Source: Streptosporangiaceae bacterium (lineage in GTDB: Bacteria > Actinomycetota > Actinomycetes > Streptosporangiales > Streptosporangiaceae). From it: 64,000 nt of DNA. Of this stretch, positions 9,967 to 48,331 are shown in pieces (within the stretch, counting starts at the first letter, position 1; the number at the start of each line of letters is the position of its first letter). The notes below the pieces were generated by a model. That model had not been told where the DNA came from and searched no databases. It saw only the letters and a list, made by a program, of their open reading frames with translations. The stretch lies in NCBI GenBank assembly GCA_030039155.1, contig JASHQL010000156.1:162-64161 (forward strand), given 5' to 3'. Made by a program: the position numbers and the translations under genes.

Positions 9967-10008
9967 GCCAGCGCCGGACCGCTGCGGCCCTGAACCCGCC
10001 GACCAACA

Positions 10009-10039: not shown

Positions 10040-10045
10040 GCAGCG

Positions 10046-26323: not shown

Positions 26324-26356
26324 GCCGGTACCGGCCTTCCGTGCGCAGCCTGGGCG

Positions 26357-26385
26357 TTGACGAATCAAATGAACAGATTTTTAAT
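26357..26385 (+). promoter_or_regulatory. candidate sigma70-type promoter for the R2-like/SCP2 operon
   Basis: TTGACG (26357-26362), a 17-nt spacer, then TTTAAT (26380-26385). Lies in an AT-rich patch about 40 nt upstream of RBS aggagg and ATG 26425. Confidence 0.4.
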
Positions 26386-26424
26386 AGCACGTACGAGAAG
26401 CACTGTCAGCAGGAGGCCGCAGGC

Positions 26425-29843: not shown

Positions 29844-29892
29844 CGATTTTCGCCTTTCCTGCCGCGGGAAGCTTGCTGCTCGGGAGCCCGGC

Positions 29893-31245
29893 TCATGCTG
29901 CCCGCTGCCAGCCGATGCCGTCAGCGGACGGGACCAGGCTGCCCGGCACGACGGCCACAGCGCCCTGGCTGGCCGCTGTGCGGGCAGCGTAGGAATGCTC
30001 GGAGTCACCTGGAACGAGTGCGGGATCGTCAGAAGCTGCACCACCGACGAGTTCTATGAACGCGACAATGTCCGCCAGAGCCGAGCCGGTGAGCCGCTTC
30101 GCCGCCCAGAAGTACGAATGCTCGCTGAGACTCTCGATATAGAACGCTCTGAGGAACTGATAGAAAAACCTGTATTCTGTTCGGTACCTGCGTTCGAACT
30201 CGGCCAGTGCCTGCTCTTCCGGGATCGCGCCGGCCAGGCTGCTGTTGATGGCCCGTGCGGCCAGCAGCGCCCCATAAGTGGCCAGGTGGACACCGGAGGA
30301 GAGAACCGGGTCAACGAAGCACGCGGTGTCGCCGACTAGGACCATGCCAGGCCGGTGAAAGCGATCGTGGCAATACGAGTAGTCGCGCCGGATGCGGACG
30401 TGCCCGTAGGGTCCGTCGGTGACGCGGCTTGCGGTCGACAGATATTGCCTGATCAGCGGGCAGGACGCGATGAGCCCGGCGAGGGCGCCAGCTGGATCTC
30501 CCTGGATGCTGGGCGCGAGGTCACCGGGGATCACCGCGCCGACGCTGGTCAGGGTCGCACTGAGCGGGATGTACCAGAACCAGCCGTTGTCGAATGCTAC
30601 CGACAGGATGTTGCCGGAGTGCGGCTCGGGCAGCCGCTTCCCGTTCTCGAAGTAGCCGAACACGGCGATGTTGCGGAAGAAGTCCGAATAGTGACGCTGA
30701 CCTGCCATCCGGCGATAGATCCGGCTGCGGTGCCCGCAGGCGTCGGCGACGAACCTGGCCAGGGCGGTACGCACCCGGCCGTCATCGTCGGTGTACCTGA
30801 TGCCTTGCACCCGACTCTGCCCGACGACGATGTCAATCGCTGAACATCCTTCATGCACGTCAACCCCGGCGCGCCGGGCGTTGTTGAGGAGGATGGCATC
30901 GAACCGCATCCGTTCGACCTGGTAGGCGTAGGAATTGCCGTGCGAGAAGGCGGGCAGGTCGCGAAATTCGAACGTCCATGGCTCAGGGTTGCTGCCCCAT
31001 CTGAATGTTCCGCCATGCTTCACGATGAAACGGCCGGCTTCAAGTTCGTCGCTAACACCGAGGAGGCGGCATATCCCATGGACAGTGGCCGGCAGCAAAG
31101 ACTCACCGATCTGATATCGCGGGAAGTGCTCCTTTTCCAGCAGCAGAACCCGCTGACCTCGCATGGCCACCAGTGCGGCCAGAGTCGCGCCGGCCGGCCC
31201 GCCGCCAGCCACGATCAGGTCATACCGCTCAGAGGCCAGCGTCAC
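29893..31245 (-). CDS. flavin-dependent halogenase
   Basis: RBS AGGGAG, then GTG at 31245. YDLIVAGGGPAG FAD motif, FPRYQIGESLLP, and the halogenase signature GWFWYIPL (WxWxIP). Confidence 0.8.
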   Translation of the reverse strand: MTLASERYDLIVAGGGPAGATLAALVAMRGQRVLLLEKEHFPRYQIGESLLPATVHGICRLLGVSDELEAGRFIVKHGGTFRWGSNPEPWTFEFRDLPAFSHGNSYAYQVERMRFDAILLNNARRAGVDVHEGCSAIDIVVGQSRVQGIRYTDDDGRVRTALARFVADACGHRSRIYRRMAGQRHYSDFFRNIAVFGYFENGKRLPEPHSGNILSVAFDNGWFWYIPLSATLTSVGAVIPGDLAPSIQGDPAGALAGLIASCPLIRQYLSTASRVTDGPYGHVRIRRDYSYCHDRFHRPGMVLVGDTACFVDPVLSSGVHLATYGALLAARAINSSLAGAIPEEQALAEFERRYRTEYRFFYQFLRAFYIESLSEHSYFWAAKRLTGSALADIVAFIELVGGAASDDPALVPGDSEHSYAARTAASQGAVAVVPGSLVPSADGIGWQRAA

Positions 31246-33772: not shown

Positions 33773-33789
33773 CTCCGGTCCCTTCGTCC

Positions 33790-34434
33790 CTAGCTGGCGA
33801 GCAGCATTCGCACCGATCCCAGCAGCCTGAGCCCAGCCTGACGGCGCTCGCCTTCGGCCGCGCCCAGCAGTCGTGCCACCTCAATGAGGTCGCAGAGTTC
33901 GCTGGTGGCCGAGGTAAGCAGCGACCGCGCGGCCCGGCTCCGCTGCACGATCCGCAACGCCGCGGCGGACTGCGTCGCGAACAGCGATAGCAACTCCAGT
34001 TGGGTCAGCTGAGACCGGCTGAGCTGCTGAGAGTCAAGAACCTCGAGGACGCCGATGGGTTCCTCATCGCAGATCACCGGGCTCGCCATCAGCGTGGCCG
34101 GCACGTAGTTCGTGGACTCCGCGATCTCTTTGGCGAACCGGTCATCGCCGTCCAGGTTGTCGACGATGACTGGCTGGCCTGACTCGAGCACCCACCCGGC
34201 GATGCCCCTGCTGGCCGGAAACCGCGTCCCGACGAGGAAGTCTGCTCCTTCGCCGGCCACGGCCTCGAACACCAGGTCGCCACTCGCGGTGTCGAGCAGG
34301 AAGATCGAACTGGCCGCTGCGTCGAAGATGGCACGCGCGGTGAGCACCACTGAATCCAGGAGCATGCGCTGATCTTCTTCAGAATCGAGCACAGCCAGCG
34401 ACATTGCCGCAGCCAGGGCGTTGTTATTGGTCAT
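33790..34434 (-). CDS. GAF-domain protein with short helical C-terminal extension
   Basis: ATG at 34434 overlaps the S8 stop (ATGA). The GAF-like core runs from SSIFLLDTASGDLVFEAVAG through RGIAGWVLESGQPVIV to PIGVLEVLD. No ANTAR or HTH seen. Confidence 0.75.
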   Translation of the reverse strand: MTNNNALAAAMSLAVLDSEEDQRMLLDSVVLTARAIFDAAASSIFLLDTASGDLVFEAVAGEGADFLVGTRFPASRGIAGWVLESGQPVIVDNLDGDDRFAKEIAESTNYVPATLMASPVICDEEPIGVLEVLDSQQLSRSQLTQLELLSLFATQSAAALRIVQRSRAARSLLTSATSELCDLIEVARLLGAAEGERRQAGLRLLGSVRMLLAS

Positions 34435-35267
34435 CGGGCACCTCGCACATTCGCGGCCGTGAGGTACAGCATGTTCTTGACCTGGAAGGCGGTCAGCTCG
34501 GGATTCTTGCTCAGAATCAATGCGCAATAGCCGGCGATGTGCGGGGTGGCAAAGCTGTTTCCGGTGCAGCGGCGCGTGCCGCCGCCAAGCCATGCCACTT
34601 CCACGTCGACTCCGTGCGCGAAGAACTCAACAGGCGGATGCGGGTTATAGAAGAACTGGCCACTATCTCCGGTGTCATGGCTGCCGACGGAAATGACCGA
34701 GGAGAAGCGCCAGGGATAACTCTCGACTCTGAGGTTGTGCGCCGAGGCGACAAGCGCGGTCTTGCGGAAGTAAGCGTCGTCGGCCAGCACGCGAAGGGCA
34801 TCGGCAAATTTCTGCCTCGTCGTGGAGAGGCTGAGGTTGACGACGTCGAACCGCTGCGCTACGGCCCACGCCAAGCCAGCCATGAGGGCGTCGCCGGTGC
34901 CAGAAAGGCCATGACTCAGTACTCGGACGCTATGAATCTCGCAGTCCGGCGCTACCGAGCGCACGACGCCGGCGCACGCCGTACCGTGACCGCTCAGGTC
35001 GTCTGCTCCGACCGGCACAACTGCCCACCCGCCGTCGGCCTGCCGCTCGACGGCATGCGACCCCTGAACCGGCCCGACTCGTGGATGGCCGCCTTCTACG
35101 CCGCTGTCGACGATGCAGACGCGGACGCCACTTCCGGTAGCGTCGCCCCACGCCTCATGCGCAGTCACCGGAGATGGCCATCTGGTGGCCTCGGCCAGGT
35201 TTGCGCGATCGCGGCCGACGATGTTCCAGGTGAGGGGCGGCCTGGCCAGCCGCGTGGTGTCCATCAC
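34431..35267 (-). CDS. S8-family (subtilisin-like) serine peptidase without signal peptide
   Basis: Catalytic triad motifs VDSGV, HGTACAG and GNSFATPH. GTG at 35267 or ATG at 35264. The start overlaps the upstream stop. Confidence 0.85.
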   Translation of the reverse strand: MMDTTRLARPPLTWNIVGRDRANLAEATRWPSPVTAHEAWGDATGSGVRVCIVDSGVEGGHPRVGPVQGSHAVERQADGGWAVVPVGADDLSGHGTACAGVVRSVAPDCEIHSVRVLSHGLSGTGDALMAGLAWAVAQRFDVVNLSLSTTRQKFADALRVLADDAYFRKTALVASAHNLRVESYPWRFSSVISVGSHDTGDSGQFFYNPHPPVEFFAHGVDVEVAWLGGGTRRCTGNSFATPHIAGYCALILSKNPELTAFQVKNMLYLTAANVRGAR

Positions 35268-38200
35268 TACCTTCCTTCAAGCAGTTGCCGTGCCCAGCCG
35301 ACGCCCACGACATGCCCTTTCCGGCTGAACCACGTCGCTGCCTGCCTGGCCATGTCCGCTGAGCCTGCACGGTCGCCGAGGTCGTGCAAGGCGATGGCCG
35401 TATCCAGGCACGCTGTCGCCCGAACTTCCGGCGAGTCGGTGCGTCGCGAGGCGGCCAGCGCTAGCGCGGACAACTGGCCTACCTCGTGGGTCAGTCCCTG
35501 CCGTGCCATGGTGCGGGCCTGCACGCCGCGACGGTCGGCGGCCGCGGCAGGCATGTCGTCGGATACCGGCGCGAAAGCTAGCTCGGCCGCCTCCGCCAGG
35601 TGCCCGCGTAGCAACTGGATCCGAGCAAGGTCCCGCGCGGCCGTCTCGGTCAGCTGCAGGTCCCCGAGATCTTTGGAGTCGATGTATGCGCGCCGCACGA
35701 TGGACTCTGCCGACTCGAGGTCGCCGGCCATCAGCCGGGTCGCGCCGACGAAGATCGGCAGAGCCACGTGCGCGCGGGCGTTGTCGAGGCCGCTGACTAT
35801 GTGGCCGGCCTCAACGAGGAACGCGTGGGCCTGATCATGCTCGGCAGCCATGGCTGCCAGCATTGCCAGCGGACAGAGCAAGGCAGCTCGTACCGTGCGG
35901 TGCGTGACCGCGTGCGCGCCGAGCAGGTCCCTGCAGCGTGCGATCGCCTGTGCGGCAGCCAGCGGCCCTGCCCAGAGCGAGACGCCAAGCGCGCCGAGGA
36001 CTGTGGCCTGCTCAAGAGCGGCGTCCAGCCGGATCGCCTGGTCTAGGGCAAGGCTGAGGGCCCTGACGGCGCTGGCGTGCCGGCCCTTGCTCTGTTTCGC
36101 GACGCCAATTCGCAGCCAGGCCCTGGCGACTCCCAGGTAGTCGCCTGCCTGTTCGAAGACTGGCAGGGCCTGGCGGGCGGCCTTGACCGACGCGCTGAAC
36201 TGCCTGGGCTGGCCAAGGTAGGCAAGCTGCATTTCGGCATGCGCCTTGATGGCTGGATTGTGCCCGGCAAGTGCTCGGTCACGGGCAGCGGCGAGGTCTC
36301 GCCGCCCGGCCTCGATCTCGCCTGCCATCAGCGCGGCTTCACCCGCCCGCAGAAGCAGCTCGGCGAGACGCTGGTCGTCAGCCGCGCAGAGCTGCAATGC
36401 CCGTCCGAGCAATCCCGATGCGTGCCGCGGATCGCCGCTGCCGAGTGCACGATTGCCGGCTGACCGCAGCGCGTCGATGGCCCGGTCAGCTAGCTGACTG
36501 CGCGTCGCCTCGGGCGTTCCGACTTCCCTGCCGAGCAGCCATGCGCGCTCCCAGTGCGTGCCAGCGATCTCGGCGTCCCCGCCGCTGGCGCTCAACCAGG
36601 CTGCCAGCCGCTCATGTCCGGCGGCGCGCCATCCCTTCGGCATCGAGTCATAAGCGACCTCATGGATCAGAGCGCTGTCGAACCGGTAGGTGGCTGCAGG
36701 CCAGGCAGCGATCTGCCGGATCAGCCGACGCTGCACGAGCGCTGCCAGGCCCTTGGCCAGTCTCGCTGCCAAGTCATCTTCGGCAATGGCAGCGAGTTCT
36801 GCGGCCGTGAAGTCGCGTCCGACCACGGCGGCCAGCCCGAGGATCCTGCGCTCACTGGTGGCGAGCAGGTCCAGCCGGTAGGAGATCAGGCCGTTGATGC
36901 TGACCGGCATCGCCTCAGACGTGCCGCTTCTGGCGACGTTGATGACCTGTTCAAGGTAGAGCGGATTGCCCTCTGCCCGGGCCACCGCGCGTTCTGCCAG
37001 CTCGGCGTCGTGAGCCATCACTTCGTCGAGCTTGGCGGCCAGAACGCGGCAGTCATCATCGCTTAGCGGGCGCAGCATGTCGGCGCGAGCATTCGGTCGG
37101 TGGCCGTTTCGTGCCCGTTCCTGTGTGGGCGTCTCGGGGCGAGCAAGCCACAGCACGGTCACAGCGACTCCAGACAGCCGGGCAGCCAAGCCGTTGACCG
37201 CATTCACAAGCTCCTGGCCCGCCATGTGCATGTCATCGAGAACGAGCACAAGCGGCCGGCCCCTGCCGATCTCGCCGAGCACGCGGCGAAGAGCCCACAC
37301 GGTCTCTGCCGGCGAGATTCCGGGCGAGTCATCGGCCAGTAGTCCCGCCCGCAGCATCGCCAGCGCTTCGGCTACCTCGGCGTCAGGGTGCGTTGGCTGG
37401 TCCCACTGAGCCAGCAGCTTCCTGACTGCCTCGGCCAGCGCCAGCAGTGAGCCGCCGGTGCCATAACCAGGGCAACTGCCGTCGGCGACTAGGGCGCTGG
37501 CGGAACGGGCCCACGCCGTGAACTCAGCGGCCAGCCGAGACTTGCCGATCCCCGCGTCGCCGTACAGGGTCACCAGCTGGCAGCTGCAGTCGCGTACCGC
37601 CAGGCTGTATGCGTGCCGCAGCGCAGCCATCTCGTCCAGGCGGTTCACCATGGGCAGATCGAAGCGGCGCGGGATGGCTGGTGCCCCATCGCTCACGCTG
37701 ACAAGACGGCCAGGCGTGATCTGGTGCGCGAAGCCCTTCAGCGTCAGCGGAGCTGCCGCCTCCTGGTCGGCGACGCCGTCAAGAGCCTTGCGGGTGAGCG
37801 GGCCGAGCAGGATCTCCCCGGCGTTGGCATGTTGCTCGAGCCGCGCCGCCAGGTTCACGGTCTCGCCGGAAACGAGCGTTGCGGCTGCTGCCAGGTCGTA
37901 GGCTGCCACGACCGGCCCGGTGTTCACGCCAATGCGCACATCGAGAGTGACGTGCAGGTCCTTGGCAGCCTCGGCATTGAGGCCAACCAGCGCCTGCCGC
38001 ATCTGCGCAGCCGCTCGAACCGCGCGCAGCGCGTCGTCCTCGTGCACGACGGGAACTCCGAACACCGCCATCACCGCATCCCCGATGTACTTCTCGACCA
38101 CCCCGCCATGCCGCTCGATACAGCTGCTCATGAGGTCGAAGTACCGGAGCATGAGTTCGCGCAGGGGCTCGGGATCAAGGGCGCGGCTCAGTTCCGTGGA

Positions 38201-38335
38201 GCCGACCAGATCGCAGAACAGCACAGTGACGGTCTTGCGAATTGTCAGGCCCTGCTCCCGCCGAGCTCGTTCGCCGCACGACGGGCAGAACTTAGCCTTG
38301 GCCGGCAGCTCTGTCAGGCAGGTCGCGCAGAGCAC
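35267..38335 (-). CDS. zinc-ribbon / class III adenylate-guanylate cyclase / AAA(STAND) ATPase / TPR-like multidomain protein
   Basis: GTG at 38335. CATCLTELPAKAKFCPSCG. Cyclase motifs FCDLVGST, YIGDAVMAVFG, GVNTGPVV and GETVNLAARLE. Walker A GDAGIGKSRL and Walker B LVLVLDDMH. Long Ala/Leu-rich helical repeat tail. No C-terminal HTH. Confidence 0.85.
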   Translation of the reverse strand: MLCATCLTELPAKAKFCPSCGERARREQGLTIRKTVTVLFCDLVGSTELSRALDPEPLRELMLRYFDLMSSCIERHGGVVEKYIGDAVMAVFGVPVVHEDDALRAVRAAAQMRQALVGLNAEAAKDLHVTLDVRIGVNTGPVVAAYDLAAAATLVSGETVNLAARLEQHANAGEILLGPLTRKALDGVADQEAAAPLTLKGFAHQITPGRLVSVSDGAPAIPRRFDLPMVNRLDEMAALRHAYSLAVRDCSCQLVTLYGDAGIGKSRLAAEFTAWARSASALVADGSCPGYGTGGSLLALAEAVRKLLAQWDQPTHPDAEVAEALAMLRAGLLADDSPGISPAETVWALRRVLGEIGRGRPLVLVLDDMHMAGQELVNAVNGLAARLSGVAVTVLWLARPETPTQERARNGHRPNARADMLRPLSDDDCRVLAAKLDEVMAHDAELAERAVARAEGNPLYLEQVINVARSGTSEAMPVSINGLISYRLDLLATSERRILGLAAVVGRDFTAAELAAIAEDDLAARLAKGLAALVQRRLIRQIAAWPAATYRFDSALIHEVAYDSMPKGWRAAGHERLAAWLSASGGDAEIAGTHWERAWLLGREVGTPEATRSQLADRAIDALRSAGNRALGSGDPRHASGLLGRALQLCAADDQRLAELLLRAGEAALMAGEIEAGRRDLAAARDRALAGHNPAIKAHAEMQLAYLGQPRQFSASVKAARQALPVFEQAGDYLGVARAWLRIGVAKQSKGRHASAVRALSLALDQAIRLDAALEQATVLGALGVSLWAGPLAAAQAIARCRDLLGAHAVTHRTVRAALLCPLAMLAAMAAEHDQAHAFLVEAGHIVSGLDNARAHVALPIFVGATRLMAGDLESAESIVRRAYIDSKDLGDLQLTETAARDLARIQLLRGHLAEAAELAFAPVSDDMPAAAADRRGVQARTMARQGLTHEVGQLSALALAASRRTDSPEVRATACLDTAIALHDLGDRAGSADMARQAATWFSRKGHVVGVGWARQLLEGR

Positions 38336-38363
38336 GTCGGCTTCGCCTCTCGGTCGTCCGGCG

Positions 38364-39209
38364 TTACAAGAAGAGGCCGCCGGCGACGTCGCCGGAATGC
38401 GCCACGACGTCTGCACGGCCGGCTTGAAACTGCTCGATGTCGGCCAGCACCGCAGCCTCGCCATCAGACAGGCCGGGAAAGCGCGCCCTGGCGTCAGCTA
38501 TGGCTTCCTTCCTGTGCACCGCTATCTCGTCGGCGGGACTCCCGGCTGCGGGTTCGACGCTTGCCAGCTCAGCAAACAGCGCAATCGCCTTGCTCGCCGT
38601 GTGCAAAGCGCTGAACCCGACCAGTGCGCGCAGCCGCGGTTCAAGGGTCAACCGATCGAGCAAGGCGAAGACCGCTTGCCCGTGTGCTGCATCAGATGCC
38701 GAGTGCCCCGATAGGGCAGCCGTCACATCCTGGCGGCCGGTGGCGGCGCGGATGTGCTCGAGTAGCTGGTCTGCCGGGGGGTTGCCCTCAAGCACGGCGA
38801 GGCAGCCGAGCAGCGCGACCGGATGAACGTCGGCGATCAGCTGATACTGTGCGCCCAGCAGGTCGGTGATCGCCGGCGTCGGCAGCGCGCCGGTCGCCCG
38901 CGATGGGTCCTGGCCTAGCGCGGTCAGGTCGGCGATCACCCACCGGTCGTGACCCCGTTCCTCGCGGACGTGCTGGGTGAAGAAGCCGACAAGCGGCCCA
39001 TTGAGCTTGTCGCCTGGATGTTGCAGACATTGGCGACGAGCGAATCTCAGCAGCGGGACGGCAGCTCGCGCGACCGGATACATGGCGGTGAGGTAGCGAG
39101 CATACGCTGGAGCCAGATCTGGGCTGCGCCAGAACAGATCTGCGGCAATATCAATTGCCGGACGAGCTAGATCGATCTTAGCTCGCAGAATCTCGCCTTC
39201 TCCGGTCAC
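38364..39209 (-). CDS. heme-oxygenase-like iron-containing redox enzyme family protein (TenA/PqqC/HDO fold)
   Basis: GTG at 39209. The HVREERGHDRW motif (E-x2-H type metal ligands) and all-helical composition are typical of the Haem_oxygenase_2 / iron-containing redox enzyme family. Confidence 0.65.
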   Translation of the reverse strand: MTGEGEILRAKIDLARPAIDIAADLFWRSPDLAPAYARYLTAMYPVARAAVPLLRFARRQCLQHPGDKLNGPLVGFFTQHVREERGHDRWVIADLTALGQDPSRATGALPTPAITDLLGAQYQLIADVHPVALLGCLAVLEGNPPADQLLEHIRAATGRQDVTAALSGHSASDAAHGQAVFALLDRLTLEPRLRALVGFSALHTASKAIALFAELASVEPAAGSPADEIAVHRKEAIADARARFPGLSDGEAAVLADIEQFQAGRADVVAHSGDVAGGLFL

Positions 39210-39406
39210 CGGATGCCGACCTCACTACGCAGCCATGCCGATGAGACTGCATGTGGACTTTGTCGGCAGCGTATGAAATGTCGAGGCAGCGAAACTATCG
39301 GCCAATTGGCGGATTTCCGCAGAACAGTGTCCCCCCAGGCGGGGCGCACTCTCGGCCAGGTGGCGGGGGTCGGAACGGGGCCGGATGGGCCTGACAGCTA
39401 GCCTGA

Positions 39407-40042
39407 CTACTCGTCGGGCGCAGTCCTCATTATGATCTCCAGCCGACTATGCAGGCCTAACTTATCGAGGATGCTTTCGATATGGGACTTGACTGTTGAC
39501 CGCGCGATGGAAAGCGCATCAGCGATCTGCGGGTTCGTCATCCCGAGCCGCACCAGCTCAAAGACCTCCCGCTCCCGTCTGGTGAGCTTCCTGCCTGCGT
39601 TGTCCCGGTCGCTGTCAATCTCATCGAGGACGGCGGCGTGGGCGAGTACCTCGTCGACGCCATCGCGCGGAAGCGGCATGTAGCCCGCCATCATCAGTGA
39701 GGCCATGGCGGCCAGGTGACTGGACACCACCTTGCTTCTGATGATGACGCACAGTCCGCTGCGGATGAGTTTCGACGCCCAGTCGCTGGTGCTGGCAACC
39801 AGCACCAGCACTGGCACCGCCACGGCCTTGTCGGCGAGACTGAGCCGAAACAGCGAACCCGCAGTCTCCGCGGTAATCGTCTCCAGGCAGATGACATACA
39901 GGTCCGGTCTTGGCAAATCTGACAGTGGATCGATATTGCGGTCGGCAGCAACGACCTGGACCGCAACGTCGCTGACGCTGGCAAGGGCGTTCTGAACGCC
40001 GCTGAGAACGAACTCATCGTCCCCAGCGACGACTATGCGCAT
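39407..40042 (-). CDS. LuxR-family regulator with atypical receiver-like N-terminal domain
   Basis: RBS GGAGGAGG upstream of ATG at 40042. C-terminal HTH LTRREREVFELVRLGMTNPQIADALSIARSTVKSHIESILDKLG. N-terminus MRIVVAGDDEF is receiver-like. Confidence 0.85.
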   Translation of the reverse strand: MRIVVAGDDEFVLSGVQNALASVSDVAVQVVAADRNIDPLSDLPRPDLYVICLETITAETAGSLFRLSLADKAVAVPVLVLVASTSDWASKLIRSGLCVIIRSKVVSSHLAAMASLMMAGYMPLPRDGVDEVLAHAAVLDEIDSDRDNAGRKLTRREREVFELVRLGMTNPQIADALSIARSTVKSHIESILDKLGLHSRLEIIMRTAPDE

Positions 40043-40152
40043 CCCCTTCCGCCTCCTCCCCGTTTCCGGGTCAGCGAGTGACAGCGGGTGTTGCTAGCAG
40101 CATTCCTCCGTCGTGCCTATAGCCAGCTTGCCATCGGCAAGCATTCCGTCAA

Positions 40153-40169
40153 TACCGCCACTGGCGGTA
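40153..40169. promoter_or_regulatory. perfect 17-bp palindrome, candidate operator
   Basis: TACCGCCA-C-TGGCGGTA. Lies about 110 nt upstream of the LuxR start and just downstream of the MFS stop. The one-base centre is too small for a hairpin loop. Confidence 0.35.
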
Positions 40170-40201
40170 GCAATCCCGGCAATATAGCCTATATCATACG
40201 T

Positions 40202-41464
40202 TTAGGTAACAGCTTCCGGCTGCCCGCGCTGCTTCTTCTGCTCCGATCTCAACGTGCTGAGCTTGCGGGAGGCCAGCACGGCTGAGGCCATGGCTACTGC
40301 GACCGCGGCCACCCCGGCGATGACGAACGTTGGCCGCGGACCGAATGCCTGTCCTATCGTGCCGCCAAGCACCAGGGCCACGACCATGCCGACCTGAACA
40401 AGGCCATTGAGCGACGCGATTGCCTTGCCCCGGTCCGCCTCGGGAGTGCGGCCGATCAGCACCGCACCGAAAGTGGCGTTGAGCGCGGTATTCGCCAGGC
40501 CGATGAGGAGGCCGAAGCAGAGGTAGACCGCGAAGTCCGGGGACAGGCCTGCGCCGATGCAGCCGAGCCCGACGAGCGCGAATCCAGCGAAGGTGATGGT
40601 CACTTGCCACGTGACCGCCTTGGCCCTGGCCGCGACCACCGAGCCAGCCACTCCGCCGACCGCCGCGGCGATCTCCGATAGTCCGTACAGGGACGCAGAG
40701 GTATGCAGGGACACGCGGACGAGGAAGACATCGACGACGTTCACGCCGCCGATCACCACGATCGTCGCGGTGAGTGCCCACATCATCGGCCAGACTATTG
40801 CGTCCTGCCTGATCGCGGAGAAGCCAGCAAACACCCTGGTGAAGGCTCTGGCGGCAGACGGCCGAGTGATGCCTTCCCGGTGTCCGGAGCGACGGGTTTG
40901 CACCAGCATCGCAGCGCAGGTCAGCAGCGCAAACGTAGCGGTGTCGACGAGCACGGCGGTGCGCATGCCAGTCAGTCCGAACAGCAGCCCGCCCAGGCCG
41001 GCACCGGCTGGGGCACCGACCGCGGCAAGACCGGACTGCAAGGCCACGAAGCTGCCGATCTTGTCTTCGCCCACGACTCTGGGCATCAGCGCCGTCCAGG
41101 TGGGCACAGTGAACGCCTGGCCAACCTGGATGGCGAAGACGAGCAGGAATACCGCGACCAGGTCGGAGGTGAAGGCAAGCGCGCAGCAGGCTAGCGTCTG
41201 CGCCGCCGTCGCGATGGCGAGCACGGTCCTGGAGTCGTAGGTGTCCGCAACATGGCCTGCGATACCTATCAGCAGCACCAGTGGCAGTGACTCCACGCCC
41301 AGCATCACTGCCACTGGCCAGATACCGATATGGGCACGCTCGAGGTACAGCAGCAACACGATGGCCAGCACGCTGTCCCCGAGCAGCGAGACGGCACGCG
41401 CCGGTACCACGATCCGGACATCGCGGATGCGCCAGAGCTGTCGTGGCGGGGCCTGCTCGGTCAC
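40202..41464 (-). CDS. MFS transporter
   Basis: GTG at 41464, 9 nt after RBS GGAAGGAG. About 12 hydrophobic helices, for example LLGDSVLAIVLLLYL and GVAAVAVAMASAVLA. Confidence 0.8.
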   Translation of the reverse strand: MTEQAPPRQLWRIRDVRIVVPARAVSLLGDSVLAIVLLLYLERAHIGIWPVAVMLGVESLPLVLLIGIAGHVADTYDSRTVLAIATAAQTLACCALAFTSDLVAVFLLVFAIQVGQAFTVPTWTALMPRVVGEDKIGSFVALQSGLAAVGAPAGAGLGGLLFGLTGMRTAVLVDTATFALLTCAAMLVQTRRSGHREGITRPSAARAFTRVFAGFSAIRQDAIVWPMMWALTATIVVIGGVNVVDVFLVRVSLHTSASLYGLSEIAAAVGGVAGSVVAARAKAVTWQVTITFAGFALVGLGCIGAGLSPDFAVYLCFGLLIGLANTALNATFGAVLIGRTPEADRGKAIASLNGLVQVGMVVALVLGGTIGQAFGPRPTFVIAGVAAVAVAMASAVLASRKLSTLRSEQKKQRGQPEAVT

Positions 41465-41516
41465 CTCACTCACCTCCTTCCTGGCCGGTCCGGCCGGGTC
41501 GCGGTGCCGAGCGGCT

Positions 41517-43475
41517 TCAGGGCACCGGCAGGTAGTCCGGCCGCCGTGCCAGCAGTGACCGGGCATCCGCCAGGTCAGCCGGTGAACCGGGCAGTACGCT
41601 CGAGATCGCGCGATGACGGATGGTGGCTAGCTCTAGGCAGTAGTCCTCCAGCAAGCCTGGGGGCAGCGACTTGGGGACCACGGGCGTGTAGTTGACGATC
41701 AGCGAGAGGATCCGGTCATCCACCTCGAGCAGCCAACCGATGTCCAGCAGCCCGGCTAGGGCTTTGACGCCAGCATCCCCTGCCCCGTCAAGCAGGTCGG
41801 CACGGCGCACACCGCGGTCGGACCGCTGGACGAGGTCAAGCTCGAGCGGCTCGAGGCAGCGCCGTGCCACCAGCGCGCCTGGCCTGGTATCAAACACCTG
41901 GCATCCGTCTGGCGTCTCGGCGCGCAGCAGTGCGCTGCCCGGATACTCGTCGCGCCACTCCTGCACGATCGAGTTCAGCACTACCCCATACTCTTCAGGG
42001 TTGTTGCCGTCGTCCGGTTCGAACTCAAAGTAGTAGGCCAGGTCGTCCAGTGCTGAGTCCGGCAGGCCGTAGACGAGCCGGTAAGCCCTGGACGGCCTGC
42101 GGTTGGCGACCCCCAGGGCCTTCCCGTCAAAGTGCAGCGGGCTGAACCGGTCCAGGCGCACCCGCCCGCCGGCTTCCGGCGGCTGCAGGTGGAAGAGTCG
42201 AGGCAGCATGCCGAACATTTGCAGGTAATCCTGCTTGCGCTCACGCGGGAACCCGTACAGCAGGTTCCAGGTCGCGGCAATGCCCAGCTCCTCTCCCCAT
42301 TTGAGCAGCCGGATGTTGTGGTACGCCTGCACACCCTTGCGCATGAGCATGAGCACCGGCGTGCTCATGCTCTCAATCCCCGGCTGAACGCTGCGGATGC
42401 CCGCCCGGCGCATGAGCACCAGCTGATCCCTGGTGACCTTGGACTTGATCTCATAGAACAGGTGCGCAGAGTGCTCGCGTTTGGCCAGTTCCGGTAGCAC
42501 CGTGCGGAAGTAACGGAAATCAAGGATGTTGTCCACCGCGTGTACGTTCTGGATACCGTACGAAAGCGCGGCGTGGATCTCCCGCAGCACATTGTCCGGG
42601 CTCTTGCTGCGGAACTGGAGGTTCTCTCCGTTCAGCCCGCAGAAGGTGCAATGCTGCTGCGCCCCGTACCAGCAGCCCCGGCTGGTCTCGATCGGGATCA
42701 GCAGCTCTGACTCCGCTATGCCGAGGTCGGCGCGGGCGAGCTGGCCAAGCCAGTCTTCAAACCGCGGCTGCGGCAACGCGTCCAGGTTCTGTGGCGGAAC
42801 AGGCCTGGCAACGCTCGGATGCGCGCGGGACAGCATCCCGGGGATGGCCGTGGCGTCGTCGGCGTGCCGTGCGATGGCGTTCGCCAGATTGAGCAGCGCC
42901 TGCTCGCCTTCGCCTGGGCAGACGTAGTCCACCCAGGGAAAGAGTCGCATCACGGCCGCGCCCATGCCCGCTTCGCAGGAGGCGCCGCCGAGCACAACCG
43001 GCACGCTCGGGTTGGCCGCCTTGAAATAGCGGGCCATCGACAGACTAGGCGCCAAGTTGAAGGTGGTGCTGAAGCATACGAGGTCGAAGCGGCGGTCGAT
43101 GATCTTCCGGCTCTCGGTACTGACGAGGTCGCGTGCCTCCGCCACCAGCGCAGGCAGGAGCTGCCCGATCCACGGGGGAACCCGCTTCCAGGCCGAATAG
43201 CGCGCTAGCTCCTCAGGGCTAGGCTCCCGGTCCTGCCCATCAGGATCCAGCCAGACCGGGGCGAACACGAGGTCGCTGAGGAGAATGTCGGCAGGCAGCC
43301 GCTCAGAGATCGTGGTGTAGAGGTTGACGCCGATGCGGCGGGCGAACTTCATGTTCAGGTAGCTGATTTCGACTATGTGGCCGTGCTGCTCGAGCACCGC
43401 TCGCAGCAGGCTCGGGCCGAGCGCGGGCCTGCGGACAGCCTGGAACGGCATCTGCGGGAACAAGATCCTGGTCAT
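41517..43475 (-). CDS. B12-binding-domain radical SAM enzyme, RiPP-maturation type, paralog 2
   Basis: MTRILFPQMPFQ, VVLGGASCE and GCWYGAQQHCTFCGLNG. Collinear similarity to 27834..29843 along the whole length. Confidence 0.85.
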   Translation of the reverse strand: MTRILFPQMPFQAVRRPALGPSLLRAVLEQHGHIVEISYLNMKFARRIGVNLYTTISERLPADILLSDLVFAPVWLDPDGQDREPSPEELARYSAWKRVPPWIGQLLPALVAEARDLVSTESRKIIDRRFDLVCFSTTFNLAPSLSMARYFKAANPSVPVVLGGASCEAGMGAAVMRLFPWVDYVCPGEGEQALLNLANAIARHADDATAIPGMLSRAHPSVARPVPPQNLDALPQPRFEDWLGQLARADLGIAESELLIPIETSRGCWYGAQQHCTFCGLNGENLQFRSKSPDNVLREIHAALSYGIQNVHAVDNILDFRYFRTVLPELAKREHSAHLFYEIKSKVTRDQLVLMRRAGIRSVQPGIESMSTPVLMLMRKGVQAYHNIRLLKWGEELGIAATWNLLYGFPRERKQDYLQMFGMLPRLFHLQPPEAGGRVRLDRFSPLHFDGKALGVANRRPSRAYRLVYGLPDSALDDLAYYFEFEPDDGNNPEEYGVVLNSIVQEWRDEYPGSALLRAETPDGCQVFDTRPGALVARRCLEPLELDLVQRSDRGVRRADLLDGAGDAGVKALAGLLDIGWLLEVDDRILSLIVNYTPVVPKSLPPGLLEDYCLELATIRHRAISSVLPGSPADLADARSLLARRPDYLPVP

Positions 43476-43495
43476 CGCTCCATCGCTGCTGCACG

Positions 43496-45268
43496 TCAGA
43501 CCGCGTCCGCGAGCTGTGGCACGCGGATGCGTCGCACTGTCTTCTTCTTCGTGTCGGCTGAGTAGAGCCAGTGACCGCGGCGGGCGGCCTCGAGATCGGC
43601 AAGCGGCCTGGTATCGAGGCCGGTGCAGTCAAGCCAGCTGAGCAACGGCGTCTGCGGATCGAGCAGCACGCTGACACCAAGCCAGTGCTCGAATTCCAGG
43701 ACCTGCAGCAGGACCTCGGTTCGTTCCTGGCCAAGGCCGAGGTGGCCGAGGAACTGCCGGAGCTCCGCATACACGCGCGATGCGCCAGTGGCCGGGTCGA
43801 ATGCCTGGGTAGCCGCAGACGGCGTGCCGCGCTCCTCGTGCCGCACCCAGCGCACGAACTCGGTGCCGAGCTCCGGGCCGAGCAGATCCCAGAGCAATCG
43901 CAGAGTGTTTCCGAACGGTCCCAGGTGCAGGATGAACCAGTAGATGTATCGGTAATGCGCGCGCGAGGTGTACTCGTTGGGAAAGTAGTAGAAGCTGCTG
44001 AAGATTCTTGGGTACCGGCGGATCTGCTCTTCCTCCCATGGCGTGACGGTCCACATGACCGCTACATCATTCAGGCGGCCGTCGAACTGCAACTGGTCTT
44101 CGTACTCGGCGGTCAGCTCGGTGCCGGCTAGCGGCGACAGTGAGTGAACTTGAACGTTGCGCATGGCCGGGCGCCACGAGCGAAATTCGAAGTAGAGATT
44201 CAGCGTGTCGGCAAGGTCGTCCGGGGTCTCGGCTGGGAAGCCGATGATCAGCGAGGCAGTTACGCCGATCTGGCGCTCCCACGCGGACCGCACCGCGATC
44301 TTGATGTCCGCTACCTTCAGGCCCTTCTTGATGGCCTGCTGCATGTTTTCCGAGCCCGACTCGACGCCGAAGAAGATCCGGCGGCATCCGGCTTCGTACA
44401 TCAGGTCAAGCAGGCTGTCGTCGATCCGGTCGGTGCGGGCACTGCACGCCCAGTCAAGGTGGAGATCTTCGCTGATCAGCCGTTTGCAGAGGTCCGCTAC
44501 CAGCCTGCGGTTCGTCGTGAACATGTCGTGCACGAACTCGAAATGGCTGCTGGCATGCTGCTCTCGCACCTTCTGCAGCTCGGCGATGATCATGTCGGCG
44601 CTGCGGAAGCGGAACCGGCGCTGGAAGAAAACCTTCGTCGAGCAGAACGTGCACTTATACGGGCAGCCGCGGCCGATCTCGACCGAGACTCCGCGGGCCC
44701 CCCCGTCAATTGGCGGTGGTGTGAGCGTGTAGTCGATGGGCCGGATGTCGTCGGCATCGATCAGCTGCGCTGGCTGGAGCTGCAGCGGGAGCAGCGTCAG
44801 GCGCGAAGCGCCTGGCGGGATGTAGATAAGGCCGGGGCGCACTGAGCGCTGACCGGTCGTGATCGCTTCCCAGAGGAACGTCACGACACTTTCCGCCTCG
44901 CCGATGACGATTCCGTCGATGAATTCATAGGCGGCCATGAGTTCACCGGGCACGCTGCTGGCCTGGGGCCCGCCGAGCACGACAGGCAAGCGGGGATGAA
45001 GTTCCTTGATCCGTTTCGCCAACGTCAGTGTCCGGGGCAGCGTGCCGCAGATCGTGCCAAGGCCAACCAGCCCAACATCCGGGCCGATGTGCAGGCCCGC
45101 AAGGAACTCTTCGAGATCGGTGTTGTCGGATGGCAGATAGTGAATGTCGACAGTCAGTCCGTGGTCTTCTTTGAGAATCGTGCCGACGACCATGACGCCC
45201 AGCGGCATCTCAGCCTGAAACTCGTCAGCTGTGCTGTTGACGAGTATCGCTCTGCTGCTGGGCGTCAC
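43496..45268 (-). CDS. class-B (B12-binding) radical SAM enzyme, distinct subfamily
   Basis: GTG at 45268, 4 nt after the upstream stop. B12-domain pattern PVVLGGPQAS. Canonical cluster GRGCPYKCTFCS. Confidence 0.85.
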   Translation of the reverse strand: MTPSSRAILVNSTADEFQAEMPLGVMVVGTILKEDHGLTVDIHYLPSDNTDLEEFLAGLHIGPDVGLVGLGTICGTLPRTLTLAKRIKELHPRLPVVLGGPQASSVPGELMAAYEFIDGIVIGEAESVVTFLWEAITTGQRSVRPGLIYIPPGASRLTLLPLQLQPAQLIDADDIRPIDYTLTPPPIDGGARGVSVEIGRGCPYKCTFCSTKVFFQRRFRFRSADMIIAELQKVREQHASSHFEFVHDMFTTNRRLVADLCKRLISEDLHLDWACSARTDRIDDSLLDLMYEAGCRRIFFGVESGSENMQQAIKKGLKVADIKIAVRSAWERQIGVTASLIIGFPAETPDDLADTLNLYFEFRSWRPAMRNVQVHSLSPLAGTELTAEYEDQLQFDGRLNDVAVMWTVTPWEEEQIRRYPRIFSSFYYFPNEYTSRAHYRYIYWFILHLGPFGNTLRLLWDLLGPELGTEFVRWVRHEERGTPSAATQAFDPATGASRVYAELRQFLGHLGLGQERTEVLLQVLEFEHWLGVSVLLDPQTPLLSWLDCTGLDTRPLADLEAARRGHWLYSADTKKKTVRRIRVPQLADAV

Positions 45269-45272
45269 CTCG

Positions 45273-46241
45273 TCAGACCTCGCCGTAGTACAGGGCCCGT
45301 AGCGTGTCGACCTGATCTCGGATTCTCTCGGCCGCGGCGTTCACCTTCGACTTGTTCTCCTCCTGCAGGAGCAGATGGCATGAACCGCACGGAGACCTCG
45401 CCAGAACCTCGTCATCAGGGTCGTCCCTGATGACGCCCGATTGGACGGCAAGCTGCCGCGCGCCGATGGTCCTGATCGTCTGCAACACACGACTATTACT
45501 GCGGGCATCCACCGCGTCCTTCAGCGGCGTGTTCTTCACATGCCCGAACCTGAGGTCATGGGGCCCGCGGACATACATGCTCTCGCCGCAGCAGCCGAAG
45601 ATCCCCCCGGTGCTGCGGATCATGAGCGTGGAGGCAGCAAGGCAAGGTTCGCGCTCCGGGAACATGGGGAAGACGCCGGGCTTCAGCTTGGTCGCGCGGC
45701 CAACCCGCATGACGCCGGAGAAGTGCACCCGCATGCGCTCGTCGTCGGTACCGAGGCCAAGTTCCTTGAGGATCTCCTCGAATTCCTCGCCTTCGGTATA
45801 GGTATATCGGATTACCGCGTCGATGCCGAGTTCCCTGGCCTCCTGCAGTGCGCGGCCTATGGCTCGCCTTGGAACGGCGGTTGCGTGATAGACATCGGCG
45901 CTGATGCCGAGTTTGCGCACGTCCAGGATCGAGTGCAGCACCTGCTGGCGTTCGGTGGAATCAACGGACCACGTGCCGTTGGTCGTCACCGAGTAGGCTA
46001 GGCCGAGGTCGCGGACGAGGCCGATCGCGTAGTAGAGCAGGTCTCGGACGTAGAAGACCTCGCCGCCGGTGAACCCTACTTCCGCCAGCGGATCGATCTC
46101 CTTGACCTGTTCAAGGACCGCCTTCAAGTATCCGCGGTCCAGCTTCGTCGTCACCTTTGGTGATGAGTTTGTCGAGCAATGCTGACACGCGAGATCACAA
46201 GACTCGGTCAGCTGGACCCCGACGCGGAGATTCTCGAACAT
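45273..46241 (-). CDS. radical SAM enzyme with C-terminal auxiliary-cluster-like Cys motifs (twitch/SPASM-like)
   Basis: ATG at 46241. CDLACQHC (CxxxCxxC) and GFTGGE. C-terminal Cys motifs EREPC, GIFGCCGE and SPCGSCH. Confidence 0.8.
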   Translation of the reverse strand: MFENLRVGVQLTESCDLACQHCSTNSSPKVTTKLDRGYLKAVLEQVKEIDPLAEVGFTGGEVFYVRDLLYYAIGLVRDLGLAYSVTTNGTWSVDSTERQQVLHSILDVRKLGISADVYHATAVPRRAIGRALQEARELGIDAVIRYTYTEGEEFEEILKELGLGTDDERMRVHFSGVMRVGRATKLKPGVFPMFPEREPCLAASTLMIRSTGGIFGCCGESMYVRGPHDLRFGHVKNTPLKDAVDARSNSRVLQTIRTIGARQLAVQSGVIRDDPDDEVLARSPCGSCHLLLQEENKSKVNAAAERIRDQVDTLRALYYGEV

Positions 46242-46322
46242 CGCACGATGCCTTCCGCGGTCCGATGGCAAGTGTTTTGGATCAGGTAACCCTCAGCAAG
46301 CAGTGATGTACCTGGCGCGTTC

Positions 46323-46553
46323 TTAGCTGACGTATACCGCCCCCACGCGGATCGCGGACTGGTCCATCATGTGCGCGGTGACGAGGTCCGATTCCTCGAC
46401 TTCGCTGATGTTGAGATCTCGCAGCATTGCCTTCTCGTGGTCGGTCAGTTCGAGTTCGCCCAGCGCCGCCGTCGAGTCAGCGCGGAACGCGTCGCGGAAG
46501 CTCTCGTCGGTCAGCAGCTGATTGATGACCTGCTTCACTACCTGGGATGACAC
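46323..46553 (-). CDS. candidate RiPP precursor peptide (76 aa) with LigA/NHLP-clan-like helical leader
   Basis: RBS GAGGAG 7 nt upstream of GTG at 46553. VSSQVVKQVINQLLTDESFRDAFRADSTAALGELELTDHEKAMLRDLNISEVEESDLVTAHMMDQSAIRVGAVYVS. It is the first gene of the collinear cluster, 81 nt upstream of a radical SAM gene. Confidence 0.65.
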   Translation of the reverse strand: MSSQVVKQVINQLLTDESFRDAFRADSTAALGELELTDHEKAMLRDLNISEVEESDLVTAHMMDQSAIRVGAVYVS

Positions 46554-46793: not shown

Positions 46794-47456
46794 CTACCCG
46801 CGGCTGAGCAGCGCGGCGAGCGGGTGCGGCAGCCGGTCCAGGTCAAGCGCCCCGGCCAGCAGGCGCGCATACCTGCTCTTGCGCATCGCGCCGCTGCCCA
46901 TGAACCGCCGCAGCTGCGGGCCGGCCGGCCGGCCGCGCCACTGCGGCTGCCGCTGCATGCTGCGGAACGAGCCGAGGTCACCCTGCGAGTCGACGAGCGC
47001 CTCTACCTGGTCGGTGCCGATCGCCCGGATGAGCTCGTCCTCCAGGTCCTTGACGCACACGTAGAAGCCGAGCCGCTCCATCTCGGCCCGCGACTCTGGC
47101 GAGCCGAGGCCGGCGCTGGCCAGGGCACGCCTGACGACGTGCTCCTCGCCGGTGTCGCACAGCCCGGCCAGCCTGAGGCCCGCGCCGGCCGGGCCGAACT
47201 GCCGCAGGAAGCGCGTCATCCCGTGCGCTCCGCCGGCCGGCAGCACCACCAGGCGCTCCGCCTCGAGGTCACGGCCGAGGCGGGCGGCGAGCGTCTCCAC
47301 CGCGATCTGGTCGCTGACGCCCTCGACGAGGACGATCGCCTGCGCGGCCGCGGCTTTCGCCAGCGCCGCCGCCGTCGCCTCGGTCGCGGCGGCCGGTCCG
47401 TGCACGTAGCCGTCGAGCAGCCGGCTGGCCAGCTCGCGCCGGCTGGTGATATCCAT
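46794..47456 (-). CDS. stand-alone TOPRIM (OLD-nuclease C-terminal-like) domain protein
   Basis: Trimmed to ATG at 47456. IVLVEGVSDQ (Toprim Glu) and GLCDTGEE (acidic cluster). About 220 aa with no ATPase domain. Confidence 0.6.
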   Translation of the reverse strand: MDITSRRELASRLLDGYVHGPAAATEATAAALAKAAAAQAIVLVEGVSDQIAVETLAARLGRDLEAERLVVLPAGGAHGMTRFLRQFGPAGAGLRLAGLCDTGEEHVVRRALASAGLGSPESRAEMERLGFYVCVKDLEDELIRAIGTDQVEALVDSQGDLGSFRSMQRQPQWRGRPAGPQLRRFMGSGAMRKSRYARLLAGALDLDRLPHPLAALLSRG

Positions 47457-47491
47457 CGAAATCGTCCCGTTCTGGCGTCCAGCATACCGAG

Positions 47492-48331
47492 GTGACCCGG
47501 TCGCCCGGGCATGACCTGCGGCTTTACACTCGCGCTGTGACATCGCCGCAGCAACCGGCCACCGCGGCCGACCCGGAAGTAGCCGCCACCGTTCGGCTGC
47601 TGCACCGCCGTCACGGCTGGGCCGCGCTGACCGTGACCGGCTTCTTCGCGTTCGCCTTAGGCGAGGGCGCCTACTCCAGCGCGCAGTCGCAGGGCACGCC
47701 GCCGCCGACCTGGTTCCTTGGCCTGGTAATCGCGCTCGGCGCGATGTTCGCCGTCGGCATCGTCGGGTGGGCGGTGGACAGTTCGCTGCTGCGGCGCAAG
47801 CACCCAGACATCCAGGCGCAGGCCGCGCCGATCGCCGCGCGGCACCCGAGCCGGCGCCTGCACCACTTCCCGCCGCGGCACGCGCTGCTCTGGGCAGCGC
47901 GCTGGGTCGGGCTGCTGGTGCTGCTCGGCGTGGCGGTGGTCACCGTGCCCGGTGTCGTGGACGGCGTCGCGTTCCTGACCGGCGCCGATAAGACCGTCAC
48001 GTTCGATCCGGTCTCCTACCAGACGAGCTGCGGTCAGTACGGCTGCCAGACCGGCACCGACGGCATCCTGGAAACCGGCGGCGCGGGTACCAGTGTGACC
48101 TGGCCGGATATGGTGCCGCTGAACAAGCCGTTCGGGGTCCGCGAGCCGGTGTGGCGGTGGGGGCTAGGTGAGGCGCTCATCAGCGGCGACGGCATCGCCA
48201 TCGCCGCTGTCGTGATCAGCCTGGGGATCGAGGGACTGGCCGTCTGGGTGCTGGTCAGCCTGGTCAGGCTGAGCAGAAACTGGATACGCCACCGGCGTCA
48301 GCAGACGCCAGCAGCCGTTGCGGTCGGCTGA
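47492..48331 (+). CDS. hypothetical membrane protein
   Basis: Four hydrophobic helices: ALTVTGFFAFALG, FLGLVIALGAMFAVGIVGW, WVGLLVLLGVAVVTVPGVV and IAIAAVVISLGIEGLAVWVLVSL. The start is uncertain. Confidence 0.5.
   Translation: MTRSPGHDLRLYTRAVTSPQQPATAADPEVAATVRLLHRRHGWAALTVTGFFAFALGEGAYSSAQSQGTPPPTWFLGLVIALGAMFAVGIVGWAVDSSLLRRKHPDIQAQAAPIAARHPSRRLHHFPPRHALLWAARWVGLLVLLGVAVVTVPGVVDGVAFLTGADKTVTFDPVSYQTSCGQYGCQTGTDGILETGGAGTSVTWPDMVPLNKPFGVREPVWRWGLGEALISGDGIAIAAVVISLGIEGLAVWVLVSLVRLSRNWIRHRRQQTPAAVAVG

Follow-up and report, generated by a model that had tools for sequence, protein, structure and literature searches.

Two putative PoyB/PoyC-type radical SAM C-methyltransferases in one peptide gene cluster of a Streptosporangiaceae bacterium

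Introduction

What would a single peptide gene cluster do with two collinear copies of a cobalamin (B12)-dependent radical S-adenosylmethionine (SAM) enzyme, and with a third enzyme of the same class beside them? The question arises from a stretch of 64,000 nucleotides of a Streptosporangiaceae bacterium (GenBank assembly GCA_030039155.1, contig JASHQL010000156.1, positions 162 to 64,161 of the forward strand), which is called the window here. Two of its genes, at 27834-29843 (paralog 1) and 41517-43475 (paralog 2), had been singled out in an initial annotation made from the letters of the DNA, and they form the subject of this work. We put at roughly three in four the chance that both encode class B radical SAM peptide C-methyltransferases of the PoyB/PoyC type, belonging to one cluster for a peptide made on ribosomes and modified after translation (RiPP) that extends from 27.8 to 46.6 kb. 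The evidence for this reading, the points that weigh against it, and the alternatives for the C-terminal domain, the third enzyme and paralog 1 are taken up below.

Sequence comparison and family assignment

Both genes are intact open reading frames (ORFs) on the minus strand, and they encode 652 residues (paralog 2) and 669 residues (paralog 1, at the distal end of the cluster). A BLASTP alignment ran collinearly from end to end, with 373 of 653 residues identical (57%) and 71% positives. Collinear paralogy and the two ORFs thus stand as first proposed, while the identity is lower than the two-thirds that had been estimated by eye. At the DNA level, the genes are 65.6% identical over 1.7 kb and show no block of higher identity. 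They are separated by 11,674 bases with eight genes (encoding a halogenase, an M1 aminopeptidase, a GAF protein, an S8 peptidase, a cyclase/AAA regulator, a haem-oxygenase-like protein, a LuxR regulator and an MFS transporter), which agrees with the earlier count of eight genes in 11.7 kb. Whole-gene G+C content is 60.4% in paralog 1 against 65.5% in paralog 2, and that of third codon positions (GC3) is 74% against 83%. The counts of 28 and 35 G+C given initially for one homologous stretch of 60 nucleotides are exact, the two stretches being offset from each other by about four codons.

That these are cobalamin-type radical SAM paralogs of a RiPP pathway, as had been proposed, is borne out by their membership of the NCBIfam family TIGR03975 ('RiPP maturation radical SAM C-methyltransferase'). 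Against a cutoff of 281.85 bits, paralog 1 scored 549.7 and paralog 2 scored 531.5, with the matches spanning profile positions 1-605 of 606 in both. Among the candidates scored, at least 1,997 relatives were found at E ≤ 1e-20; most of those with a name are called either 'RiPP maturation radical SAM C-methyltransferase' or 'ribosomal peptide maturation radical SAM protein 1', and 91 further plasmid records contain a homologue.

Both paralogs read GCWYGAQQHCTFCGLNG, in which the cysteines are residues 268, 276 and 279. The Cx7Cx2C motif noted in the initial annotation is therefore present in each (CWYGAQQHCTFC, residues 268-279), at 42639-42674 in paralog 2 and at 29007-29042 in paralog 1 (minus strand), and is taken to provide the ligands of the radical SAM [4Fe-4S] cluster. 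A peculiarity confined to these two proteins was ruled out, since all 120 of the best relatives carry C-x7-C-x2-C and none of the 120 carries C-x3-C-x2-C. The same motif is described for PoyB and PoyC of polytheonamide biosynthesis and for three bottromycin methyltransferases (PMC5682303, PMC11285071), as well as for MpcB of clavusporin (bioRxiv 2024.01.23.576971), these statements being drawn from two reviews and the clavusporin preprint. Moreover, RadicalSAM.org gives Cx7Cx2C for its whole B12 Megacluster-2-5 (PMC9477430). From its occurrence in all 120 relatives and in this literature, we regard the non-canonical spacing as a family signature and not as a peculiarity of the locus. The initial impression that the motif and the C-terminal domain are unusual does not hold, as both are known hallmarks of the PoyB/PoyC, bottromycin, MpcB and Megacluster-2-5 enzymes. 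Judged by sequence, the paralogs are ordinary members of a large and already catalogued family of peptide-methylating B12 radical SAM enzymes.

In their N-terminal halves, which had been described as Rossmann-like and of the B12 type, both paralogs match the B12-binding domain PF02310 at E values of 3.7e-6 and 3.7e-7, the scores (27.2 and 30.4 bits) standing just below the gathering score of 32.1. The PF02310 match is also precomputed for both proteins. The best PDB (Protein Data Bank) sequence matches of the paralogs were TokK (4.5e-5), whose similarity covers this N-terminal region, and 9ccb (1.4e-4).

Modelling of the C-terminal domain

The C-terminal segment lies inside the TIGR03975 profile match and is conserved throughout the family, with the consensus L...D.RP.A......L.G.ER..Y..CD.G...L...L..L...RW....DGRYLSLAV. 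It comprises residues 516-591 of paralog 2 (41703-41930) and, by alignment with paralog 2, about residues 513-594 of paralog 1 (28062-28307), both on the minus strand. An AlphaFold2 model of paralog 2 residues 441-652, based on 36 homologues, was confident over about residues 511-620, and a second model of residues 508-600 (93 residues) reached a predicted local distance difference test (pLDDT) score of 95.2 and a predicted template modelling (pTM) score of 0.84. The latter consists of three strands (516-521, 524-529 and 538-541), three helices (543-551, 558-561 and 566-578) and an extra β-hairpin (582-585 and 588-591), so that in the model a β-hairpin and a third strand precede a winged helix. 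This βββ-ααα-ββ domain, obtained with the leader peptide absent, is the outcome of the structure prediction of the C-terminal ~100 residues that had been suggested as a check, and it agrees with the winged-helix-like tail first seen by eye.

Two Foldseek searches of the PDB gave winged-helix domains as all of the top 50 matches, including IclR (2g7u), MarR proteins, Sso10a, MotA, ScpB and SelB, along with the dimerisation winged helices of PigF, RedM and CalO1. The superpositions covered about 52-57 residues (helices and wing) at 2.3-3.1 Å, with probabilities of up to 0.97. A Pfam scan of 36 C-terminal domains from the family returned only weak matches to winged helix-turn-helix (wHTH) families (HTH_IclR at 3e-4, TrmB, MarR_2 and DeoR). 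Likewise, a profile search of the PDB sequences with this domain returned only HTH and wHTH proteins and no RiPP recognition element (RRE). Modelling thus supports a winged-helix-type fold for the C-terminal segment.

Past the end of the TIGR03975 profile, a further tail of the pattern DYTPxxPxSxPxxLLExFCLExAAxRHR is common to the paralogs and their nearest relatives (41517-41695, residues 594-652, in paralog 2; 27834-28061 in paralog 1). The tail is predicted with moderate confidence to form two helices, and is absent from more distant members of the family.

Precursor peptide and proposed reaction

A precursor peptide of 76 residues is encoded at 46323-46553 (minus strand), at the upstream end of the island described below, with a GTG start after GAGGAG and the conserved C-terminal part EESDLVTAHMMDQSAIRVGAVYVS. 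Its leader of about 53 residues scores 39.5 bits with NF038399 ('Os1348 family NHLP clan'; cutoff 40) and 28.8 bits with TIGR04509 (cutoff 34). The core has some 20 residues, of which nine are Val, Ile, Thr or Met and none is Trp. A second precursor was sought by tblastn with three precursor variants, and within the window these matched only 46326-46553; among the small ORFs at 26.3-27.9 kb, near paralog 1, none made a convincing precursor. Paralog 2 is two genes away from the precursor, and paralog 1 is 16.5 kb away in the same island.

Family membership, the cluster-binding triad, the B12-type N-terminal domain, the C-terminal fold, synteny and phylogeny are direct observations. For the substrate, the sites, leader binding and the chemistry we argue by analogy, the models for the mechanism being PoyC and further Cx7Cx2C enzymes that have been characterised. 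Each paralog would consist of a cobalamin-binding Rossmann domain, a radical SAM barrel with the [4Fe-4S] cluster held by Cx7Cx2C, and the βββ-ααα-ββ winged helix at the C-terminus, onto which the NHLP-like leader of the single 76-residue precursor would dock. Reductive cleavage of SAM would then generate the 5'-deoxyadenosyl radical (5'-dA•), which would abstract hydrogen from an unactivated side-chain carbon, after which the methyl group of methylcobalamin would pass to the substrate radical and a second SAM would re-methylate cob(I)alamin. Repeated on several residues, this cycle would act iteratively along the C-terminal core. In characterised relatives the target is the Cβ of Val, Ile, Thr, Pro, Phe or Met, and PoyC has been demonstrated to be a B12-dependent methylase of Val Cβ, giving 5'-deoxyadenosine and S-adenosylhomocysteine (PMC5682303). 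Paralog 2 would be the ancestral, syntenic methyltransferase of this type of cluster. Paralog 1, which comes from a sister subclade, would most likely cover different residues, comparable to the spatial division of labour between sites reported for PoyB and PoyC (PMC11285071). It is from such analogies that we infer several distinct C-methylations on one core, as the initial annotation had envisaged.

Several observations speak against this assignment. The PF02310 scores of the paralogs are slightly under threshold, and the PDB search with the paralogs gave no solved structure of the TIGR03975 family. For both subclades of the paralogs the chemistry is assigned by analogy, and kinship to PoyB and PoyC is argued from what the family is called, from the motif they have in common and from published work. 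As for the C-terminal domain, the Foldseek E-values of the 93-residue model were non-significant (0.1-0.7), no RRE-containing PDB entry was among the top 50 Foldseek matches, and PqqD (PF05402) was unmatched in the 36 family C-terminal domains at E ≤ 10. Finally, paralog 1, being 16.5 kb from the precursor and lower in GC3, could serve another substrate.

The points on the C-terminal domain bear on whether it binds the leader. We consider it unlikely that the winged helix is instead a structural, oligomerisation or nucleic-acid-binding module, with the leader being recognised elsewhere or dispensable. The modelled domain, of about 90 residues, has the βββ-ααα order by which RREs are strictly defined (PMC12710340), though the structures nearest to it are those of DNA-binding regulators and of the winged helices by which small-molecule O-methyltransferases such as PigF, RedM and CalO1 dimerise. 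HTH regulators are structurally homologous to RREs, and RRE-Finder warns of them as its main false positives; together with the unmatched PqqD profile, this favours the non-binding alternative. Nevertheless, the domain is conserved in a family whose members adjoin precursors, and published surveys of RREs include both C-terminal RRE fusions, predicted by RRE-Finder in proteusin enzymes (PMC7470986), and the 'PoyB group', which ranks among the six largest groups of radical SAM proteins associated with an RRE (PMC10288494). The RRE-like element of the initial annotation therefore retains its topology and the prior RRE reports and lacks a match to a solved RRE structure or to PqqD. We keep 'RRE-like' as a putative label, which draws on the modelled topology and on the literature on relatives.

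The third cobalamin enzyme

The third enzyme (43496-45268, minus strand) had been described as class B with a canonical motif, and indeed it has CPYKCTFC at residues 202-209 (44642-44665), a B12-binding domain (PF02310, 43.3 bits) and a radical SAM domain match (PF04055, 74.2 bits). Its identity to paralog 2 is only 27%. Among named families, the closest by sequence is ApyD (NF050148), with 251.7 bits over profile positions 75-436 of 645. We could rule out an ApyD equivalog, for which 750 bits are required against the 252 obtained. The best PDB sequence matches were 9ccb (6e-20) and AprD4 (2e-18).

ApyD and the third enzyme are both class B radical SAM enzymes that have the canonical motif and belong to RiPP clusters. 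The residue β-methylated by ApyD is a Tyr adjoining the C-terminus (ApyD paper), and a conserved Tyr is also found in the precursor here, three residues from the end. They are unlike in that the score is one third of the cutoff, with the N- and C-terminal parts of the ApyD profile unmatched, and in that the partners of ApyD in its cluster (an oxidative enzyme that depends on multinuclear non-haem iron (MNIO), a P450 and an ApyS-type protein) are without counterpart here. On this analogy, the third enzyme would most likely methylate another site than the paralogs, perhaps the Cβ of the conserved Tyr74.

One may ask whether, among the three B12 enzymes, one or more have a function other than methyl transfer, and instead form, for example, a C-C or C-S cross-link (involving Tyr74 or His61) or catalyse a rearrangement. 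B12 radical SAM enzymes of RiPP pathways do include the biaryl cross-linking BipD and other non-methylating enzymes, and the ApyD paper lists methylation, C-S and C-P chemistry, ring contraction and C-C cyclisation for the superfamily. The cited characterised Cx7Cx2C enzymes, on the other hand, are all Cβ-methyltransferases, and both paralogs score far above the TIGR03975 cutoff. With this motif and these scores, the alternative is realistic mainly for the third enzyme, which attains 252 of 750 bits for ApyD and for which AprD4, a diol dehydratase, is about as near a match among solved structures as any other. Taken over all three enzymes, we find it improbable.

Evolutionary history of the paralogs

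In neighbour-joining trees with bootstrap, the two paralogs belong to sister subclades, each supported at 100%. Paralog 2 groups with P0002-P0005, its syntenic orthologs, at 65-75% identity. The other subclade unites paralog 1 with P0007 (67% identical, the pair itself having 100% bootstrap) and with P0008-P0014. A recent tandem duplication or gene conversion was ruled out by the 65.6% DNA identity without a high-identity block and by the separate clades with full support. Because the paralogs fall in different, well-supported subclades, the initial conclusion that they are not a recent in-place duplication holds.

Members of the paralog 1 clade are seen in two settings, namely as the sole methyltransferase beside a more divergent precursor (locus L011), and, for P0007, on a short contig of metagenomic origin, directly downstream of an ApyD-like gene (L010, 1-711). 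The ApyD-like and TIGR03975 genes may travel together as a pair. A related locus in an Actinomycetota metagenome-assembled genome (MAG; L001) also has two TIGR03975 genes (5242-7224 and 9116-11074), one of which, the additional copy, is divergent from the precursor. Since both L001 copies are in the paralog 2 clade, that duplication is independent, and extra methyltransferase copies were gained independently at least two times in this cluster family. The cluster in the window probably either acquired paralog 1 from a related cluster or retains it as an old duplicate.

The gene cluster and related loci

All genes of the 27834-46553 island (~19 kb) are on the minus strand, and their GC3 is 0.72-0.83. 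The flanks have about 72% GC, and the flanking genes (coenzyme A-transferase, 25130-26368; ribonucleotide reductase small-chain-like, 26341-27429; and 46794-47543) have a GC3 of 0.91-0.93. It is the lowered GC3 and the single strand, relative to these flanks, that define the island, which is compositionally distinct and was probably acquired horizontally. Just outside it, the gene at 46794-47543 encodes 249 residues with an OLD-like TOPRIM domain (PF20469, E 2e-8) and has the native high GC3.

From the precursor onwards, the order of genes is YydG-like radical SAM enzyme, ApyD-like third enzyme, paralog 2, MFS transporter, LuxR regulator, haem-oxygenase-like protein, cyclase/AAA regulator, S8 peptidase, GAF protein, M1 aminopeptidase, halogenase and paralog 1. 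The YydG-like enzyme (45273-46241; 322 residues, CDLACQHC) is a putative peptide epimerase that matches YydG in the PDB (8ai6, E 2.7e-18 over residues 4-223) and scores 82 bits with TIGR04078 (cutoff 300). This radical SAM enzyme next to the precursor is YydG-like and not recognisably of the PoyD type, and its pairing with PoyB-type methylases appears unusual. Downstream of paralog 2 are the MFS transporter, a likely exporter (40202-41464; PF07690, 100.9 bits; 420 residues in sibling assemblies), the LuxR-family regulator (39407-40042; PF00196 GerE, 63 bits) and the haem-oxygenase-like 'iron-containing redox enzyme' (38364-39209; PF14518, 39.9 bits), which is found in all related loci and could be a di-iron oxidase acting on the peptide. 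Next comes a large regulator with adenylate/guanylate-cyclase and AAA_16 domains (maximal ORF 35267-38464; PF00211, 79 bits; PF13191, 63 bits), whose true start is probably at about 38338. It is followed by the S8 subtilase, a candidate leader peptidase (34431-35267; PF00082, 93 bits), the GAF-domain protein (33790-34434; PF01590, 60.6 bits) and the M1 aminopeptidase, a candidate for N-terminal trimming (31229-33772; PF01433, 188 bits; PF11838, 168 bits). The flavin-dependent halogenase (29893-31245, start uncertain; GWFWYIP and FVDPVLSSG) occurs only in this version of the cluster, and scores 203 bits with PF04820 and 252 bits with CmlS (NF033113; cutoff 900). As the core lacks Trp, Tyr74 and His61 are the candidate sites of halogenation.

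The order precursor, YydG-like radical SAM enzyme, TIGR03975 enzyme, MFS, LuxR, haem-oxygenase-like protein, cyclase, S8, GAF and M1 recurs in L001, in Streptosporangiaceae NEAU-GS5 (L002), in a JGI contig (L009) and in five sibling MAG assemblies of the window. The synteny of precursor, YydG-like enzyme and methyltransferase is kept in L001, L002, L009 and L011, and orthologs of paralog 2 are at the equivalent position in the first three of these. The S8 subtilase is kept in L002 and L009. In these two loci, moreover, the block corresponding to 33790-38464 (cyclase/AAA_16/TPR regulator, S8, GAF and M1) is conserved together, which suggests cyclic-nucleotide-linked regulation and a two-step leader removal. 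Both have a single TIGR03975 enzyme and an arginase after M1 (L002, 1-202; L009, 15714-15735), where the window has the halogenase and paralog 1, in addition to the ApyD-like insertion. The arginase may convert the conserved core Arg to ornithine.

Precursors of the related loci are 71-75% identical, with a nearly invariant tail of the pattern EESDLV(V/T)AH(M/L)MDQSA(I/L)R(V/I)G(S/A)VY(V/I)(S/T). The precursor was found in few assemblies only, namely the sibling MAGs of the window, L001, L002 and L009, plus a divergent form in L011. A scan of species-representative genomes gave one locus only (Streptosporangiaceae NEAU-GS5), a scan of metagenome contigs gave no confirmed locus, and in the literature searched we found no characterised product matching the precursor. 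The host cluster is thus a rare, conserved and uncharacterised actinomycete RiPP cluster.

That paralog 1 does not act on this precursor, being an orphan or remnant brought in with the halogenase from a related cluster (with its substrate elsewhere in the genome) or simply redundant, strikes us as quite improbable: it does lie at the end of the island that is remote from the precursor, 16.5 kb away, with the lowest GC there (60.4%, GC3 74%), in a subclade with other settings (sole methyltransferase with a divergent precursor in L011, or after an ApyD-like gene in L010) and at the place of the arginase in related loci, but the gene is intact, matches the profile over its full length and keeps the three Cys, it shares the strand and the lowered GC3 of the other island genes, tblastn found no further precursor of this family in the window, and several methyltransferase paralogs per cluster are normal (PoyB/PoyC, three in bottromycin, and the independent duplication in L001).

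Significance and comparison with known systems

In themselves, two further PoyB/PoyC-type enzymes matter little, as their family has thousands of catalogued members, and the motif and the C-terminal domain were already described. What modest value they have comes from the context, in which a YydG-like epimerase is mixed with PoyB-type methylases in a rare uncharacterised cluster, and in which versions of the cluster with one, two or three B12 enzymes would act on an almost identical core peptide. These versions would offer a convenient system for studying how such poorly tractable enzymes choose their sites and whether the winged helix does read the leader. Beyond this, the cluster might define a new and rare type of RiPP, with a core of ~20 residues, a truncated NHLP-like leader, YydG-type epimerisation, Cβ-methylation at different sites by two PoyB-type enzymes and one ApyD-like enzyme, halogenation, and di-iron oxidation by the haem-oxygenase-like protein. 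We advance this only tentatively and hold it to be possible, if on balance doubtful. If true, the repeated independent gain of paralogs (in the window and in L001) would be a natural experiment on the evolution of regiospecificity in iterative B12 methylases.

Unlike the YydG/YydF epipeptide system, the cluster has a precursor unrelated to YydF, and combines its YydG-like radical SAM enzyme with B12 methyltransferases. Closer to the paralogs is the methyltransferase of a pheganomycin-type cluster on a plasmid of Streptomyces sp. 2P-4 (WP_284581965.1), which bears the same name from the Prokaryotic Genome Annotation Pipeline (PGAP) and is 36.8% identical over residues 3-533. It shares the CWWGAKHHCTFC motif and a C-terminal FDTR...DGKYLSLA pattern, and its gene is directly beside a RiPP precursor. 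That cluster differs, however, in having a 37-residue precursor of another family and a single methyltransferase, and in its product a non-ribosomal amino acid is ligated to the peptide.

MpcB of clavusporin and BotRMT1-3 of bottromycin are, like the enzymes proposed here, actinomycete B12 radical SAM Cβ-methyltransferases with Cx7Cx2C, and their targets are multiple unactivated carbons, modified iteratively or in parallel. MpcB depends on a separate protein, the DUF5825 partner MpcC, which is similar to the C-terminal part of MpcB itself, and the cluster here lacks such a partner. In bottromycin a follower peptide takes the place of an NHLP-type leader.

The polytheonamide system differs from the cluster in its host, the sponge symbiont 'Entotheonella' against an actinomycete, in its core of 49 residues against ~20 in a 76-residue precursor, and in its PoyD-like epimerase against a YydG-like putative one. 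Its N-methyltransferase and dehydratase are not seen here, where a halogenase, a haem-oxygenase-like protein and an ApyD-like enzyme are found instead. The candidate NHLP-type leader of the precursor here nonetheless recalls the polytheonamide system, and a C-terminal fusion of the RRE type is reported for proteusin enzymes. Above all, each cluster has two class B radical SAM paralogs with the Cx7Cx2C motif in both members of the pair, PoyB and PoyC being 64.6% similar to each other and the paralogs here 57% identical and 71% similar.

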